In this document: one piece after another, positions 2,097 to 22,472 of the stretch
Layout: each line of letters starts with the position of its first letter
Position numbering within the stretch: the stretch's first letter is position 1
Sequence record: OK331996.1
Strand: one strand, 5' to 3'
From: Escherichia phage vB_EcoM-G157lw
Length of the DNA: 64,000 nucleotides
Program-made: the position numbers and the translations under genes
The notes under the pieces: model-generated
Databases searched by the model: none
Told to the model about the DNA's origin: nothing
Seen by the model: the letters and a program-made list of their open reading frames with translations, nothing else

Positions 2097-5000
2097 CTAT
2101 TTTAACCTGTGTTGGATTTTCAGGGTCTCTTGGATTTCCTATATTATCTTTTAGACGTTTATTAACTAAATCTCTAAATTGCGCAAATGTTGTTCCAGAT
2201 GCATCAAATAAAGGACTCATTAATTTACGTCGTTCAGACGGCAATTGACCTTGAAATATTGAATTATTATTTTCAGCATTATAGTCATCAGGAAGAGGAT
2301 ATTCTACACCAGCCATTGGGCCAGGCTCATAAATTGCTTCGCCTGTTACTGAATCATGCTCAATTTCACCGGTTGGAGTTAATTTAGCTACTCTATCAGC
2401 ATATTCAGTAGGCAATCCAGAATCCCATTTATAGTTTTTGTATTTATTAATTATAGTCTCTGTGTGTTTAAGAGTTAAACCAACATTAATAAACATCGTT
2501 AAAAGGGTAATTGCTATAAATCCAAATCCTACTGGATGAACAAAACGAATAACGTCAGATTTCCAACGGGAAGAAGGTAAATTGGATTTAATTTTCATTA
2601 CATAGTATGATCTACTTCTATTAATATAGTCTATATTGTTTTGAAGCAAATCCTTTCCTTTAACCCCACGAATAATTTCGCCTTCAAAACCAGGGAGTCT
2701 TTCTGCTTTAACTTCTTGACCAGCAATTAATCGTCCTAAAAGATTATGAATAGTTACGGTCCATTGCAATTTACCATTAGAATAGCTTCTTTCTATATAA
2801 GTAACATTACATCTTCCTGTTGCCGTATAAATCGTTTGTCCTACTAAATCTTCAGTCAAAGAATCAGATTGAACGATTATGTCATATTCAGTACCGGCCC
2901 CAGATTCAATTTCAATTTCAACTTCTTCATTATAAAGAACTTTAAAAAGAAACTTGTATGATGCTTCAATTCCTTTAGTAGAATAAAAATCATAGCTACG
3001 TGATTCAAAGAATCTCGCAACAGCATCACGTTTATCAGCATTTAAATAAATGTTTCTTTTATATATCTCTGACCACAAATATTCCCACGCATGCTCTTCT
3101 CGTGGATATTGGTTACGAATTAAATTTCGTAAATTGTTATACTGAGTTCCATATCCGTCAGAAAGATATTGAATATATGCTTCACAAAATGCCTCAAAAT
3201 TAGAATCTTGTAACAAGTAAGAATCAGGCATCATTGTGCCAATCAATGGTCTTAAATCAGGGTCAGCTAATCCACGTTCTTCTTCTGGTGACCAAGGAGT
3301 TTCGCGCTCTTGGTTTTGTAAAAATGCTTTTAAAAATACTTCAGTTGGCTTCCAAATAATTTCTACTGTATCTCTCACACGATAGTTAAAATCATAATAA
3401 GAAATTATTTCGCCAGAAGATTTGTAGAAAAGCATTCCTGATGCGTATTTTTTAAATCCGGTGAATTTAACATTTGGCATTACTATCGTGCAATCACCAT
3501 CATCCCAGTATTCATGAACTAATCTATCTGGTGATGTTTCTGGAATATTTTCTATAACTTTAGTGTATTTTAAATCAGCATAAACTACTACAGCTCTATC
3601 AGAGTTGTTTATCCAACATCGTGTGTTAGATTTTTTAGACCAGTTAAAGAACGGTTCTGCGTAGTATTTCATTGGTTGAGGAGTAAAAGTCTCCCAATCA
3701 GATTTTTCATCCGCTATAAATGCCATCATATGATAATGCTTATCAGCTAACCATTCACGAGGAAATTCATATTTAACAGCACCGATTAACTGATATTTCA
3801 CCACAGTTTCAGGGTCATTAACAATGTTATCACTTAAAAATTTAAAATTACTCGAAGATAGAGAAACTAATTTACCGTCAGTTGACATATTCGCATATCC
3901 GGGTTGAATACGTCTTCTTTCTTCTTCGGTATTACCGAAAACTCTTTTCCACGTTTTCGTATCATGGTTTAAAACATATATTCCTTTATCAGCAGAATCA
4001 ATTATTTTTGATGTTCTAGGATTGGCATTTAATGTTTCAACTTCACCAATAATAAGAGCAAAAACTTTATCACCAACAGAATCCATTTTATAGCATACTG
4101 CTTTAGGATTTCCGGTTATAGTCATGGTATCAGGTTCAAAAAGTCTTTCCGAATATGTTGGAGATAATGGATCAGAATCTATAGGTGCATTACTCGTTTT
4201 TATGTATCTAACTTTGTCTCTGGCGACAACGTAAATGTAATCATCGGTGCAAGTAATAGCTTCTGCAATGCGGTATACATTCGCTGGTAAAGTCGCATAA
4301 GTGGCAAAAATTTCTACATCAAATCCTAAATGTAATTGGTCGCCAAGTTTAGCGAATGTTATATCCTGTGAACTGAATCTGACATCATCAGCTGACCATC
4401 TAACATCAGTAGATTTGCGGCCATAGAAAATCTTGTCGTATCCTAGAACGTATGTAGTGTTCGCAGATTGGTAATATACTGTCTTAGATAAAGGATATCC
4501 TACACGGTCATTGAAGAGCTTTACAGCTTTCCAGGTTTGTCCTTTATCATTAGATACTTTAACCACGGGTTGATAACGCTCAAAAAGATATAGAATCCCT
4601 TCTGATTCCATCAAATAAACTCGGTTAATATCCTTACATACTTGCTGAATGGAACCTTGTATTTCATGATACTCATTTTCACCAATAATAAAATTACTGA
4701 TTGATGAAACATCAACATATGATGGGCTGAATTGGAACGATTCATTCATCAATGCAGCCATTATAGTGTCATTATTAAAATTGACATAATTAGAATTGTT
4801 AAGAGTAAACTTTTCCTGAATGAATTTATTGGCTAATTGCATTTCAATCATGTTTTGAAATGTGTAAGCATTCGTAGCAAAAGTTTCAAACTCTTCAGTA
4901 TAAATCCAATCAGACTGCTCAAAATCCTGCGCAGCTGTAGCTACTCTAATAATGTACGATGTTAATGGATTAGCATTATCAAAAAAGAAGCTGTTATTTG

Positions 5001-7468: not shown

Positions 7469-8025
7469 TATTGCCTCTCATACACGTAGCTTCTCAGTTT
7501 ATTAGCCCAACGACTCCAATTTCCAACTATAGTTTTAGTATAATTTTTAACGAGAGTTTTTCTTATTGGAGCAGGAGGATCCGTTGGTTCAGTAGTATCA
7601 GAAGATGACCTAGAATTACTGCCAGAACCCCCAGATTCACTTTGTTCTTGGTAGTCATATATTAATGTTACTTCGTAAGTGAATGTCTTCTGGAGGTTTT
7701 GAGGAGCTTTCCATAGATATAACTGAGTATTAGAATCAGTTGGGAGGTCTTCCCATGAAGCAGCAGTTTTAAATTCATCGCCTAAACGATATTTCAACGC
7801 GTCATCTCCAAATCCAAACACAGATTCATATGTTCCATATAAGCGATTTTCTTCTACTAAAACCCCAGGAGTTTCTTCGTAACTAGTTATATTTATAGAT
7901 ACTAACGTTTCACCTGTTTCTAATTGAGCGGTAAAGGTGACGTCGATAGAAGAACCTTCCATGGATTCTCCTAAATCAGCGCTCATTGGAAGTATATTAG
8001 CCAATGTCAATCCTCGATCCATCAA
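7468..8025 (-). CDS. hypothetical protein (5.1-like position)
   Basis: 185 aa ORF between gp5 and gp5.4, start overlaps gp5 end. Confidence 0.6.
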
Positions 8026-13744: not shown

Positions 13745-13776
13745 TTTACACGATGATGGAGAAGTGATATTATCTC
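13745..13776 (+). promoter_or_regulatory. T4-type early promoter (GTTTAC -35, TGATATTAT -10)
   Basis: AT-rich upstream, GTTTACA, about 17 nt spacer, -10 like. Confidence 0.5.
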
Positions 13777-13808
13777 CATCAACACATTTATTAATTTAGG
13801 AAAATAAA

Positions 13809-14093
13809 ATGAAAACTTATCAAGAATTCACTTCAACGACTAACGCTTCTACTTTGACTGAAGCGACCCTTACTTCTGAAGTTATTAAAGCAAACAAAGG
13901 ACGTGAAGGTAAACCGATGATTAGCCTGGTTGATGGCGAAGAAGTCAAAGGTACTGTTTACCTGGGTGATGGATGGTCCGCTAAGAAAGATGGTGCTACA
14001 ATCGTTATCTCCCCTGCTGAAGAAACTGCTTTGTTTAAAGCCAAGCATATTTCAGTAGCTCAGCTTAAAATTATTGCTAAAAATCTTTTGTAA
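13809..14093 (+). CDS. ipI: internal head protein IPI with capsid targeting sequence
   Basis: 94 aa, N-terminal MKTYQEFTS... CTS-like leader; position after 57B. Confidence 0.8.
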   Translation: MKTYQEFTSTTNASTLTEATLTSEVIKANKGREGKPMISLVDGEEVKGTVYLGDGWSAKKDGATIVISPAEETALFKAKHISVAQLKIIAKNLL

Positions 14094-15125: not shown

Positions 15126-15198
15126 TGGGAATTAGCCAAGTTGGTAAGGCACTGGATTTTGATTCCAGGATGCAAAGGTTCGAGTCCTTTATTCCCAG
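15126..15198 (+). tRNA. tRNA-Gln (anticodon UUG)
   Basis: manual cloverleaf: acceptor TGGGAAT/ATTCCCA, anticodon loop TTTTGAT, T-loop GGTTCGAGTCC. Confidence 0.8.
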
Positions 15199-15199
15199 C

Positions 15200-15286
15200 G
15201 CGAGAATGGTCAAATTGGTAAAGGCACAGCACTTAAAATGCTGCGGAATGATTTCCTTGTGGGTTCGAGTCCCACTTCTCGCACCA
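15200..15286 (+). tRNA. tRNA-Leu (anticodon UAA), class II
   Basis: acceptor GCGAGAA/TTCTCGC, loop CTTAAAA, long variable arm, encoded CCA. Confidence 0.8.
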
Positions 15287-15291
15287 AATTT

Positions 15292-15365
<74 letters not shown>

Positions 15366-15375
15366 ATTTAATTTA

Positions 15376-15449
15376 CTCCGTGTAGCTCAGTTTGGTAGAG
15401 CGCCTGATTTGGGATCAGGAGGTCCAAGGTTCAAATCCTTGTATGGAGA
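15376..15449 (+). tRNA. tRNA-Pro (anticodon UGG)
   Basis: anticodon stem CCTGA/TCAGG, loop TTTGGGA, T-loop GGTTCAAATCC. Confidence 0.75.
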
Positions 15450-15451
15450 CT

Positions 15452-15541
15452 GGAGGCGTGGCAGAGTGGTTTAATGCACCGGTCTTGAAAACCGGCAGTC
15501 GCTCCGGCGACTCATAGGTTCAAATCCTATCGCCTCCGCCA
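15452..15541 (+). tRNA. tRNA-Ser (anticodon UGA), class II
   Basis: acceptor GGAGGCG/CGCCTCC, loop CTTGAAA, long variable arm, CCA. Confidence 0.8.
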
Positions 15542-15546
15542 GTTTT

Positions 15547-15622
15547 GCTGATTTAGCTCAGTAGGTAGAGCAACTCACTTGTAATGAGAAGGTCGGCGGT
15601 TCGATTCCGTCAATCAGCACCA
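15547..15622 (+). tRNA. tRNA-Thr (anticodon UGU)
   Basis: acceptor GCTGATT/AATCAGC, loop CTTGTAA, CCA. Confidence 0.8.
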
Positions 15623-15623
15623 A

Positions 15624-15698
15624 GGCCCTGTAGCTGGAAGGTTCAAGCAAGCGACTCATAATCGCCAGATGGTGGTTCAATTCCACCCAGGGCCACCA
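15624..15698 (+). tRNA. tRNA with CAU anticodon (Ile2 lysidine-type, or Met)
   Basis: acceptor GGCCCTG/CAGGGCC, loop CTCATAA, CCA; T4 tRNA-Ile position. Confidence 0.75.
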
Positions 15699-15710
15699 AA
15701 TTATGAATTA

Positions 15711-15797
15711 GGGGAGTTATCCCGTAGAGGTAGCGGTGTGGACTGTAAATCCATTGTCATTGCGACTCGGGTGGTTCGACTCCATCACTCCCCACCA
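15711..15797 (+). tRNA. tRNA-Tyr (anticodon GUA), class II
   Basis: acceptor GGGGAGT/ACTCCCC, loop CTGTAAA, long variable arm, CCA. Confidence 0.75.
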
Positions 15798-15801
15798 ATT
15801 T

Positions 15802-15876
15802 GGATGTGTAGCTCAATGGCAGAGCGATCGCCTGTTAAGCGATTGGTTATAGGTTCGAATCCTATCACGTCCGCCA
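15802..15876 (+). tRNA. tRNA-Asn (anticodon GUU)
   Basis: anticodon stem ATCGC/GCGAT, loop CTGTTAA, T-loop GGTTCGAATCC, CCA. Confidence 0.75.
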
Positions 15877-15990
15877 AATTTGTGACAGTTGTCACATTAA
15901 TATCTACTTGACGCGATTATCGGGGTTGAACTGATCACTCTTCTCTTAATTTCGTGTGAAGACATCTTGATTGTTGGAGTAGGTATTAAT

Positions 15991-16066
15991 GTGGCCGTAG
16001 TTCAGTTGGTAGAACTCGAGATTGTGATTCTCGTAGTCATGGGTTCGACTCCCATCGGTCACCCCA
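15991..16066 (+). tRNA. tRNA-His (anticodon GUG)
   Basis: anticodon stem CGAGA/TCTCG, loop TTGTGAT, T-loop GGTTCGACTCC, CCA. Confidence 0.75.
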
Positions 16067-16070
16067 ATTA

Positions 16071-16146
16071 CGGGGCATAGCTCAGAAGGAAGAGCAAGGA
16101 CCTTCTAAGTCCTAGGTCGTAGGTTCGATCCCTACTGCCTCGACCA
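16071..16146 (+). tRNA. tRNA-Arg (anticodon UCU)
   Basis: anticodon stem AGGAC/GTCCT, loop CTTCTAA, T-loop GGTTCGATCC, CCA. Confidence 0.8.
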
Positions 16147-16162: not shown

Positions 16163-16513
16163 ATGAAAGGTAATGTTTATTTAGTAGTTCATGATTTAAC
16201 ATTTTACTTCAATGAATATGAAAAACATATCTCATTTCGTGAAATTAATTTACTTTATCAACACGCGGATTATATTTATATTCAAAACGAATTTGGTCAT
16301 TGGCAATTTCTCAAAAATCGTTCATTTGGCTTAGATGGTTACGAATACTTTGAACGTAAAGACCTTTTAGATAAAATTCCGTTATCTACACAATATCAAA
16401 ATCACAAGTCTTTATATAAATGCCGTCCAATTCGAAATGCTGAATCTGCGTATGAAGCAATTGATTTATGGCGTAAACGTCGTGAACAGATTGATGCTTT
16501 AAAAGAATATTAA
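16163..16513 (+). CDS. hypothetical protein
   Basis: 116 aa ORF, RBS GAGGAAAA, directly after tRNA-Arg. Confidence 0.55.
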   Translation: MKGNVYLVVHDLTFYFNEYEKHISFREINLLYQHADYIYIQNEFGHWQFLKNRSFGLDGYEYFERKDLLDKIPLSTQYQNHKSLYKCRPIRNAESAYEAIDLWRKRREQIDALKEY

Positions 16514-16519
16514 GAAACC

Positions 16520-16826
16520 GGGTCGCTACCGGTAAGTCGTCGGACTGATGTTCCCTGAGTAAGGAATTGTGTTAATAAATCTTTATGATTTGTTGATGCC
16601 CTCTTACATCACAGCTGAAACGGCGCACCGAATTATCGATTCGAGGAAATATCTTTGCCGTAAGCCGAGTAGCGTTTTTGACGGAACGTTCGGATATGGT
16701 CGAGATATGGCCTTTTAAAAATATTGAGTAGCGTCAACTGCTTGATAACCGGGTTCGAATCCCGGCGTTTCGTACAAACACTTGCCTTAGCAGGTGGAAC
16801 CCCGACAAGGTTGCCGCAAGGCTTAG
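16520..16826 (+). ncRNA. ORF-free structured region, candidate small stable RNA(s) comparable to T4 species 1/2 RNAs
   Basis: about 310 nt without ORF; T-arm-like CCGGGTTCGAATCCCGG; ends at strong terminator. Confidence 0.35.
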
Positions 16827-16852
16827 CCCCAGCCGAAAGGTTGGGGCTTTTT
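16827..16852 (+). terminator. intrinsic terminator, GNRA-loop hairpin
   Basis: CCCCAGCC gaaa GGTTGGGG then CTTTTT. Confidence 0.7.
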
Positions 16853-16854
16853 AG

Positions 16855-16862
16855 TATAAATA
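16855..16862 (+). promoter_or_regulatory. late promoter TATAAATA
   Basis: exact TATAAATA 37 nt upstream of ATG 16899. Confidence 0.55.
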
Positions 16863-16898
16863 AGTATATTAAATCTACAAATTAAAACAGGAAATAAG

Positions 16899-17372
16899 AT
16901 GAAATCATATACTCAATTTTTAAATGAAGCGGTGTTAAATGAAGCATCTAGCACCGAAATTCAAGCTGTCGCAAAAGCAGCCATTGCAGCGGGTAAATAT
17001 TCTTACAAAGATGCTTCTGATGAATCACGATTCCAGTTCGCACGCGACATGAAAGCGGAAGGATTTACGGGAAATGCAGTTAGTATGGCCTGGAAAAGTT
17101 TAGTTGCTACTGGCGCTGCTTTTGCAAAGGCTTCGGGTAAACCTGCTCCTAAAGCAGATCCTAAAGTCGCACAAGAGAAAAATATTGTTAAAGGAATTAT
17201 CTCCAAATATGAAGCTATCCTTAAAGAGCTTTTAGTAATCAAAACTGAAGGCCAAAAACTAGCTCGTGCTTATAGTTTCAAAGATAACCCACATGCTCAC
17301 TCTCTTGAGTATGTTGAAGACATCCAAAAAATTATTAAAGACCGCATTTGGTCTGCTAAACAAATCAAATAA
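16899..17372 (+). CDS. internal-protein-like protein with capsid targeting leader
   Basis: 157 aa, N-terminus MKSYTQFLNEA resembles CTS of T4 IP proteins; late promoter upstream. Confidence 0.65.
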   Translation: MKSYTQFLNEAVLNEASSTEIQAVAKAAIAAGKYSYKDASDESRFQFARDMKAEGFTGNAVSMAWKSLVATGAAFAKASGKPAPKADPKVAQEKNIVKGIISKYEAILKELLVIKTEGQKLARAYSFKDNPHAHSLEYVEDIQKIIKDRIWSAKQIK

Positions 17373-17381
17373 CATTCTTAG

Positions 17382-17407
17382 CCCTAGCCGAAAGGTTGGG
17401 GCTTTTT
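17382..17407 (+). terminator. intrinsic terminator (near copy of 16827 hairpin)
   Basis: CCCTAGCC gaaa GGTTGGGG then CTTTTT. Confidence 0.7.
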
Positions 17408-17540
17408 GGTATCTAGGCCTTTCCAGGCCTCTCTAGACATCATTTAGTTTCTACCCTTTATAATATATTATCCTATCCTTTGATTTCCCCTCCCTGCCCT
17501 AGAATTCCCCAAAACTTTTTAAAAATTTTTTCACAAAACT

Positions 17541-17570
17541 GTTTACATCCTTGTCCTTCCATGGTACTAT
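17541..17570 (+). promoter_or_regulatory. early promoter with conserved leader (PeSL-like cassette)
   Basis: GTTTAC, TACTAT, then conserved ACAACTATCAACTACTGATACAG leader. Confidence 0.55.
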
Positions 17571-20941: not shown

Positions 20942-21910
<969 letters not shown>

Positions 21911-21914
21911 AGTT

Positions 21915-21944
21915 GTTTACTTTCTCCTAGAATTGTGATAGTAT
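21915..21944 (+). promoter_or_regulatory. early promoter (GTTTAC / TAGTAT) with TGCTTGA MotA-box-like motif downstream
   Basis: motif match only. Confidence 0.4.
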
Positions 21945-21998
21945 ATTCACAGTTGCTTGAAGAGACAAATTACTAATTAAAATATTTAAAGGAAACCC

Positions 21999-22472
21999 AT
22001 GAAAACATATCAAGAATTTATCACTGAAGCAGCTATTAATTCTCAAATTATTGCTGAATCTTTTACTGATCTTTTGAAATTTAAAAAAGGTCAAAAAATT
22101 ACTGCTGTATTGGATGATGGTACAGAAGTTGAGATGGATGTACAGGGATATAATTATGCAGTAGATGGAAAATTGTATAATAAATCTCATGCTAAATTTG
22201 ATTCATTTGACGACTTTGTTAATGCAGTTGAAGATGAAAAAACTCGTCGATCCATTGCAACTGGTGATGCTAAGGTTCTTATGGCACATGGTCATGAACG
22301 CATTCGCGCTAAACAGAATAAAATGGGTGAAGATAATTTTGCATTAGTTGGTTATCAATCTGGTAAACAAACCTATGGTTATCAGCGTACTGCTACCATG
22401 TATAATAAAAATGGTAAAATTGCCTTTGTGAATAGTAAAGGTTCTATTCAGTACGTTAAATCGTTCAAATAA
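21999..22472 (+). CDS. internal head protein (IPIII/IPII position) with capsid targeting sequence
   Basis: 157 aa, N-terminus MKTYQEFITEA; immediately after e. Confidence 0.7.
   Translation: MKTYQEFITEAAINSQIIAESFTDLLKFKKGQKITAVLDDGTEVEMDVQGYNYAVDGKLYNKSHAKFDSFDDFVNAVEDEKTRRSIATGDAKVLMAHGHERIRAKQNKMGEDNFALVGYQSGKQTYGYQRTATMYNKNGKIAFVNSKGSIQYVKSFK

Follow-up and report, generated by a model that had tools for sequence, protein, structure and literature searches.

The internal head proteins (Ips) of T4-like phages have been recognised by a short N-terminal leader since 1994, and the idea that they act against host defences is a standard hypothesis. For the leader of IPIII, amber-suppressor mutagenesis assigned targeting mainly to residues 4 and 7, and processing to residues 8 and 10 (review PMC9026906). 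Ip1, Ip2 and Ip3 are inhibitors of GmrSD enzymes, a different one in each case, and the literature on these proteins, which speaks of 'the two Ip loci', anticipates additional type IV variants as targets of the other Ips (PMC12373910). Another leader-bearing protein, Bas37_0260, is encoded at the ipI locus and inhibits McrBC (bioRxiv 10.1101/2025.11.20.689424). Here we describe a candidate member of this class encoded in a 64,000-nt stretch of Escherichia phage vB_EcoM-G157lw (sequence record OK331996.1), referred to as the window. The open reading frame (ORF) in question, which we call gene A, lies between the tRNA/stable-RNA cluster and e.8. With a probability of roughly 75%, its product is a late-expressed, capsid-targeted Ip that had previously gone unlabelled. 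The features of gene A and of its protein are:

16855..16862, + strand: T4-type late promoter TATAAATA (gp55/gp33-dependent); exact match, directly after the terminator T-run
16889..16894, + strand: Shine-Dalgarno element AGGAAA, read from the sequence, 4 nt 5' of the gene A ATG
16899..17372, + strand: gene A coding sequence; ATG start, 157 amino acids (aa), 17.3 kDa, isoelectric point (pI) 9.5, N-terminus MKSYTQFLNEAVLNEA
16899..16943, + strand: capsid-targeting leader MKSYTQFLNE (aa 1-10) and duplicated site; predicted gp21 cuts after Glu10 and Glu15 (LNE/A in both, the slash marking the cut)
16950..17123, + strand: N-terminal three-helix domain (aa 18-75); AlphaFold2 (AF2) predicted local distance difference test (pLDDT) 78-90, with conserved GKYSYKD...RFQF...GF...AWKS motifs
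17124..17159, + strand: Pro/Ala/Lys-rich linker ASGKPAPKADPK (PAPKADPK); low pLDDT at 84-86, length variable across the family
17160..17360, + strand: C-terminal helical hairpin (aa 88-154); AF2 helices 88-124 and 132-154

An earlier note on this DNA, made from the letters only, had described the ORF, the start of its leader and its coordinates, all of them correctly, and had counted three proteins with T4-like leaders in the window. When all ORFs in the six frames of the window that begin with ATG and reach 40 aa or more were scanned with a loose leader pattern (M-x1-3-[YF]-x-x-F ... [LI]-x-E), exactly those three were recovered, at 13809, 16899 and 21999. The other two belong to confirmed Ip families: the ORF at 13809 is IPI (Pfam IPI_T4 at E=1.3e-51), and the one at 21999 matches DUF7412 (9e-96) and phrog_3155 ('internal virion protein'), its RB68 counterpart being noted as 'Ip4'. 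In gene A, the likeness extends to a cleavable signal. Residues L8-N9-E10/A11 form a canonical L-x-E site for the prohead protease gp21, and a second copy follows five residues on (L13-N14-E15/A16). The leader has Y4, F7, L8 and E10, matching the functional IPIII residues, with Ala next; the N-terminus of T4 IPII and IPIII reads MKTYQEFIAE/A and that of T4 IPI MKTFKEFTST. Residues 4-15 are modelled by AF2 with a pLDDT below 50.

The leader is also where the gene A family is best conserved. When 12 members sharing 24-79% identity were aligned, M1, F7, K66 and K85 did not vary, a further four columns (L8, E10, F47 and G55) showed conservation of at least 90%, and only Y or F occurred at position 4; half of these eight best-conserved columns lie within the first ten residues. 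Distant members begin with MLKFNEFLAE, MINFSDFLNE, MKSFSSFLNE or MKFKEFLAE. At the DNA level, the gene A leader is about 73% identical to that of the Ip4-like gene, with no long identical run by our own count, so the similarity appears to be held at the peptide level and does not look like a trace of recent recombination. Acquisition of the leader by recent recombination with other ip genes was rejected on the same grounds. As far as sequence can show, the gene A leader is a functional capsid-targeting sequence.

Proteomic evidence comes from phage fD1 (phiD1), whose g140 is a 98.7% identical ortholog of the gene A protein. Listed as being without a T4 counterpart, g140 was detected with tandem mass spectrometry after liquid chromatography (LC-MS/MS) in virions purified by ultracentrifuge and was classed as 'PPAP' at the strict threshold, which called for two or more peptides, spectral counts averaging no less than 2 and presence in all replicates (PMC8309999, Table S3). 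Absence of the protein from virions, which the earlier note had named as the finding that would speak against its proposal, is thus not what was seen, although the dataset is unspecific and the evidence moderate.

Several observations weigh against a capsid-targeted Ip with a role in anti-restriction. The 'particle-associated' set of fD1 also takes in 113-137 of 277 phage proteins (DenV, NudE and dNMP kinase among them) and 672 host proteins (PMC8309999), so the detection of g140 proves expression and co-purification, not encapsidation. N-terminal cleavage of the gene A protein is a prediction from its sequence, and the relatives P0004 and P0008 (MKTYNEFLMTE) carry M, not L or I, at the presumed P3 position. 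The family is far more widely conserved than Ip1-3, which suits a fast arms race less well, and fold and sequence searches returned no similarity to any known inhibitor, the only fold matches being to generic helical hairpins. The remaining point comes from transposon mutagenesis of phage Bas37, where the protein of bas37_0244 is 98% identical to that of gene A and the gene proved non-essential, insertions having disrupted 29 of its 34 TA sites (HIDEN-SEQ preprint 2025, bioRxiv 10.1101/2025.11.20.689424). Its disruption carried no fitness cost on K-12 BW25113 (McrA+, McrBC+, Mrr+), and relative to that host the log2 fold change was -0.11 on CFT073, -0.30 on CFE299 and -0.14 on CFE303, with an adjusted p of 1 (HIDEN-SEQ). 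Dispensability as such counts in favour of an Ip, T4 ipI, ipII and ipIII being likewise non-essential on K-12 (HIDEN-SEQ).

The many non-structural proteins in the fD1 virion preparation, together with the predicted status of the cleavage, would suit an accessory protein of the cytoplasm, made late and left out of the capsid, its leader being a relic of descent or recombination and its mass-spectrometric signal a carry-over. We consider this improbable. Within a family whose members have otherwise drifted apart to about 25% identity, no segment is better conserved than the leader, a pattern that is hard to explain without function; the leader's DNA identity of about 73% to other ip leaders makes recent recombination unlikely; and the L-x-E motif at 8-10 is retained in nearly all members. 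Its three L/I-x-E sites (at 8, 13 and 108), helical character and late expression could, on the other hand, make the gene A protein a component of the scaffolding core that, like gp22, gp67 and gp68, is broken down completely by gp21 and expelled, and hence not delivered. That account is highly improbable, as conservation is limited to the two N-terminal sites, at least two peptides of the fD1 ortholog were recovered from mature virions, and gene A is non-essential and polymorphic, unlike core proteins. Judged by its sequence, the gene A protein is very probably packaged and processed by gp21, as expected of an Ip.

A late promoter would have gene A expressed while proheads assemble. The exact TATAAATA that the earlier note had placed at 16855-16862 is present, 36 nt from the gene A ATG, and its position is conserved in six lineages, represented by Jiaodavirus phiKp_22, Karamvirus CW742, the Serratia phages Muldoon (Muldoonvirus) and 4S, Tegunavirus fHe-Yen9-01 and Tequatrovirus fPS-65. 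In these lineages, whose flanks at this slot have otherwise diverged, a hairpin of differing sequence is followed within a few bases by TATAAATA upstream of the slot's first leader-bearing gene, and this copy is usually the sole one on either strand of the ~3-kb locus. The fPS-65 record labels it 'predicted late promoter', and Mosigvirus PhAPEC2 has the one-base variant AATAAATA in its place. The window holds no significant excess of the motif (12 copies, against 10.3 expected from shuffles), so its count alone proves nothing and the weight rests on its position and on its conservation in other genera. No sigma-70-like promoter was found upstream of gene A on the + strand in a promoter scan, and we infer that transcription of the gene is late only. 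Among the three leader-bearing genes of the window, gene A alone has an exact TATAAATA close upstream; none lies within 100 nt upstream of ipI (upstream stretch 13750-13808) or of the Ip4-like gene (upstream stretch 21911-21998), the latter gene being preceded by a sigma-70-like GTTTAC...TAGTAT.

The lack of enrichment would also be expected if gene A were a chance ORF 3' of a chance TATAAATA, a reading of negligible probability that is refuted by the conservation and proteomic data. The dN/dS ratio (nonsynonymous to synonymous substitution rates) of gene A against its Mosigvirus ortholog is 0.083, indicating strong purifying selection; homologs occur in 511 phage records, at a syntenic position; peptides of the ortholog have been detected; the ORF has a Shine-Dalgarno element; and its promoter is conserved across genera. 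Gene A almost certainly encodes a real, late-expressed protein.

In all 511 records the relatives of gene A are labelled 'hypothetical'. They are spread over Tequatrovirus, Mosigvirus, Jiaodavirus, Karamvirus, Tegunavirus, Winklervirus-like phages, Muldoonvirus and other Serratia phages, that is, over six named Tevenvirinae genera plus Muldoonvirus. In PHROGs, gene A falls in phrog_2280 ('unknown function') with E=2.9e-60. A Pfam search with its protein gave no match even at E up to 1, IPI_T4 (PF11634) and DUF7412 (PF24183) included, and an exhaustive profile search of 1.84 billion representatives returned only 13 clusters, which are close relatives without exception and connect to no family of known character. 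The literature search found no mention of RB32ORF132c and no discussion of Ips in Petrov 2010; the gene A leader is absent from the supplements of Silas 2025, and virion proteomics is absent from the Kc304, LC53 and fPS phage papers. Frameshifted gene A alleles that keep the leader and N-terminal domain only occur in several phages (P0006, P0008, P0014 and fPS-65, in the last at locus 2752-3090). The fPS-65 frameshift lies within a poly-A run, which is A9 there, A7 in Bas37 and GAGAAAAAT in the window. These frameshifts could be sequencing error, slippage or decay.

Gene A is the body of a 555-bp cassette that consists, in order, of a terminator hairpin, the late promoter, the Shine-Dalgarno element, the ORF and a second copy of the hairpin. 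The elements that bound it, and the nearest promoter beyond it, are:

16822..16857, + strand: left copy of a 36-nt direct repeat, found by repeat search and blastn self-match
16825-16848, + strand: left terminator hairpin AGCCCCAGCCGAAAGGTTGGGGCT with T-run; terminator scan, 10-bp stem with 7 GC pairs
17377..17412, + strand: right copy of the 36-nt repeat, closing the cassette; repeat search, blastn self-match and terminator scan
17380-17403, + strand: right terminator hairpin, 3' of the gene A stop codon; terminator scan
17542..17570, + strand: sigma-70-type early promoter of the e.8 block (TTTACA-17-TACTAT, TG-extended); promoter scan, conserved with T4, outside the cassette

The two repeat copies are 94% identical with starts 555 nt apart, and the hairpin (plus xGTAT) forms their core. 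The left hairpin is the end of the tRNA/rnaD/rnaC transcription unit. T4, T6 and RB3 have the hairpin in one copy, at an otherwise collinear empty site (T4 locus ~7625-7910), and 3' of the right repeat the window and T4 are collinear, the e.8 early promoter included. This looks like gain or loss of the cassette by recombination between the stem-loop repeats, which would account for the empty site of these three phages.

The surroundings of the cassette are those of a Tequatrovirus (T4-like) segment of the RB32/RB51/RB68/wV7 type, with 98-99% identity. On the + strand, gene 1, 57A, 57B, ipI (13809), trna.4-.2, eleven tRNAs, rnaD and rnaC precede gene A, and e.8 to e.2, nudE, e (21416) and the Ip4-like gene (21999) follow it. 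The earlier note placed gene A outside the T4 ip positions, and this holds: the two T4 ip loci lie elsewhere, and T4 has 284 bp and no gene between rnaC and e.8. Overlap of gene A with an RNA gene was considered and rejected, since the Rfam matches are the 11 tRNAs at 15126-16143 only; rnaC as annotated in RB68, mapped by a coordinate offset of 10,695 nt, ends about 130 nt upstream of the gene A ATG. The eleven tRNA genes at 15126-16143 compare with eight in T4, and the one at 15713-15792 scores barely above the Rfam threshold (30.2 vs 29 bits). Between the last tRNA and rnaD lies a conserved 116-aa ORF (window 16163-16513; RB68_139, bas37_0245) that has no counterpart at that position in T4 and whose Bas37 ortholog, bas37_0245, is non-essential. 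For denV (endonuclease V), which T4, RB68 and fD1 carry between e and their ip gene(s), tblastn found no match in the whole 64-kb window, and e is directly followed by the Ip4-like gene (interval 21910-21999 between the two).

A query with the junction showed that, in Tequatrovirus, the slot between rnaC and e.8 exists in four states, a polymorphism both of presence or absence and of replacement. In some phages it holds a second gene, here called gene B (of the RB69ORF149c / RB14 orf136 / bas37_0243 type), which encodes 187-188 aa starting with MKTYAEFLTEAAKLPS (MKTYAEFLTE/AAKLPS). The states, and the coordinates of gene B, are:

Slot empty: T4, T6, RB3, Sf24
Slot with gene A only: the window, RB32/51/68, wV7, Bas43
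Slot with gene B only: Shfl2 (188 aa)
Slot with genes A and B: fPS-65, Bas36, Bas37 (KarlGJung); also Mosigvirus
Gene B locus coordinates: Shfl2 598-1164; Bas37 (bas37_0243) 1052-1615; PhAPEC2 3089-3652; fPS-65 3353-3916

Gene B is absent from the window. Both genes belong to phrog_2280, and their BLASTP alignment comprises the 11-residue leader only. Gene B shares with gene A the slot, the leader and the layout of leader, domain, PAK linker and helical domain, and it has a terminator of its own. HIDEN-SEQ calls gene B 'Essential' in Bas37, with 1 of 48 TA sites hit; as Hoc and Inh are also called essential in both T4 and Bas37, and in Bas37 so is bas37_0017, a putative homing endonuclease, this call may be technical. 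In Serratia and Yersinia phages, the member of the gene A family comes second in a late operon, behind another leader-bearing ORF. The ORFs heading these operons encode mini-proteins of 70-72 aa (MKSFTEFLTES..., MNFKDFVNES...) in Muldoon (986-1204) and Serratia phage 4S (992-1204), and in fHe-Yen9-01 a 189-aa phrog_2280 member (gp154, 622-1191); none of them is labelled 'internal protein'. The gene A family marks a widespread polymorphic ip slot that is empty in T4, and is not an oddity of one phage.

For the way in which an Ip encoded here might act, we propose the following. Gene A would be transcribed late only, from its own TATAAATA, with the hairpin terminators insulating the cassette on both sides. 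The leader MKSYTQFLNE would dock the protein on the scaffolding core of the assembling prohead, where gp21 would cut after Glu10 and/or Glu15 (L-N-E/A). A cut after E10 should leave the semi-tryptic peptide AVLNEASSTEIQAVAK and a cut after E15 the peptide ASSTEIQAVAK, with tryptic SYTQFLNEAVLNEASSTEIQAVAK expected from uncleaved protein. The basic, all-helical product of about 15.5-16 kDa would remain in the head among the DNA and, by analogy with T4 IPI-III, would be injected with it. On arrival, its most probable task, by analogy, would be to block a host nuclease that attacks DNA carrying glucosylated hydroxymethylcytosine (glucosyl-hmC), for instance a type IV enzyme like GmrSD or McrBC, before phage genes are expressed. 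The gene itself would travel as the 555-bp cassette bounded by repeated stem-loops.

That the gene A protein is an anti-restriction or anti-defence effector is a tentative suggestion whose chances we put a little short of even; it is drawn by analogy, because Ip1, Ip2, Ip3 and Bas37_0260 inhibit type IV enzymes. The chief competing account of its function is a generic role in association with DNA, in which the packaged protein would neutralise and organise the packaged DNA or aid its ejection, as had long been suggested of IPII and IPIII. In its mature form the protein is basic and rich in lysine (pI 9.5, with 24 K+R vs 16-17 D+E), and in T4 heads internal proteins touch the phosphates of the DNA through their lysines (PMC3012670). 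The breadth of the family and the strong purifying selection on it suit housekeeping better than an arms race, and no host-specific phenotype was seen on the four hosts of HIDEN-SEQ. We nevertheless regard this role as rather unlikely, given that gene A is dispensable, that T4, T6 and RB3 do without it, and that Ip2 and Ip3, two basic T4 proteins formerly credited with the same role, proved to be specific GmrSD inhibitors (PMC12373910). It is also conceivable, if unlikely, that the tRNA/rnaC-e.8 slot is a third, ancestral ip locus of the Tevenvirinae. The slot would then hold phrog_2280 paralogs (gene A, gene B and the mini-ORFs of Serratia phages), and phrog_2280 would serve a conserved role and not be one more inhibitor of a GmrSD variant. 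The breadth of the family and the apparent essentiality of gene B in Bas37 would point to such a role, which could lie in countering a widespread enterobacterial defence or in genome delivery.

Recognition of gene A as a probable ip gene leaves the concept unchanged, in that leader-recognised Ips were already known. What is new is the assignment of a widespread 'hypothetical' family (511 records) to the Ip class, a third polymorphic ip locus with paralogs, and a late cassette bounded by stem-loops. Injected internal proteins act ahead of any phage gene expression, and all T-even members tested so far (Ip1, Ip2, Ip3 and Bas37_0260) are specific inhibitors of type IV restriction enzymes. The gene A family, whose 511 records include many therapeutic-candidate Tequatrovirus and Mosigvirus isolates, may hold the next inhibitor-target pair and is a possible host-range determinant. 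In addition, MKSYTQFLNE offers a natural variant leader for T4 protein-packaging technology.

Compared with T4 IPI-III, the gene A protein has the same kind of leader (an aromatic residue at 4, Phe-7, L/I-8 and Glu-10, then a small residue) and the same small size. It is basic, as are IPII and IPIII, and non-essential on K-12, and its gene occupies a polymorphic slot near the tRNA/e region. Unlike the T4 genes, which occupy the ipI and ipII/ipIII loci, gene A has a third locus, between rnaC and e.8; it lies in an insulated cassette with a late promoter only, and its product matches neither Pfam IPI_T4 nor DUF7412. Whereas Ip1-3 are narrowly distributed, its family reaches six named genera and Muldoonvirus. 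Packaging, cleavage, injection and target of the gene A protein are putative. Bas37_0260 is similarly a T-even accessory protein recognised only by its N-terminal packaging signal, and it demonstrates that inhibitors of type IV restriction exist among such proteins outside Ip1-3. It is, however, a different protein, encoded at the ipI locus and with a clear K-12 (McrBC) phenotype, whereas bas37_0244 of the same phage shows none. In its architecture, the cassette resembles the promoter-early stem-loop (PeSL) cassettes of RB49 and phi1 (Arbiol et al. 2010, PMC2839356) in having a single accessory ORF, its own promoter and repeated stem-loop terminators, and the lambdoid 'morons' likewise consist of a single accessory ORF with its own promoter bracketed by stem-loop terminators. 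As with PeSL, relatives have a single element at the empty site, as if from recombination between the repeats. In contrast to PeSL, the gene A cassette has the late TATAAATA where PeSL elements have an early promoter of the sigma-70 type, its repeat consists of the 36-nt hairpin only, and its excision and formation of a mini-circle are putative. The gene A cassette can thus be described as a late-promoter version of the stem-loop-bounded gene cassettes.

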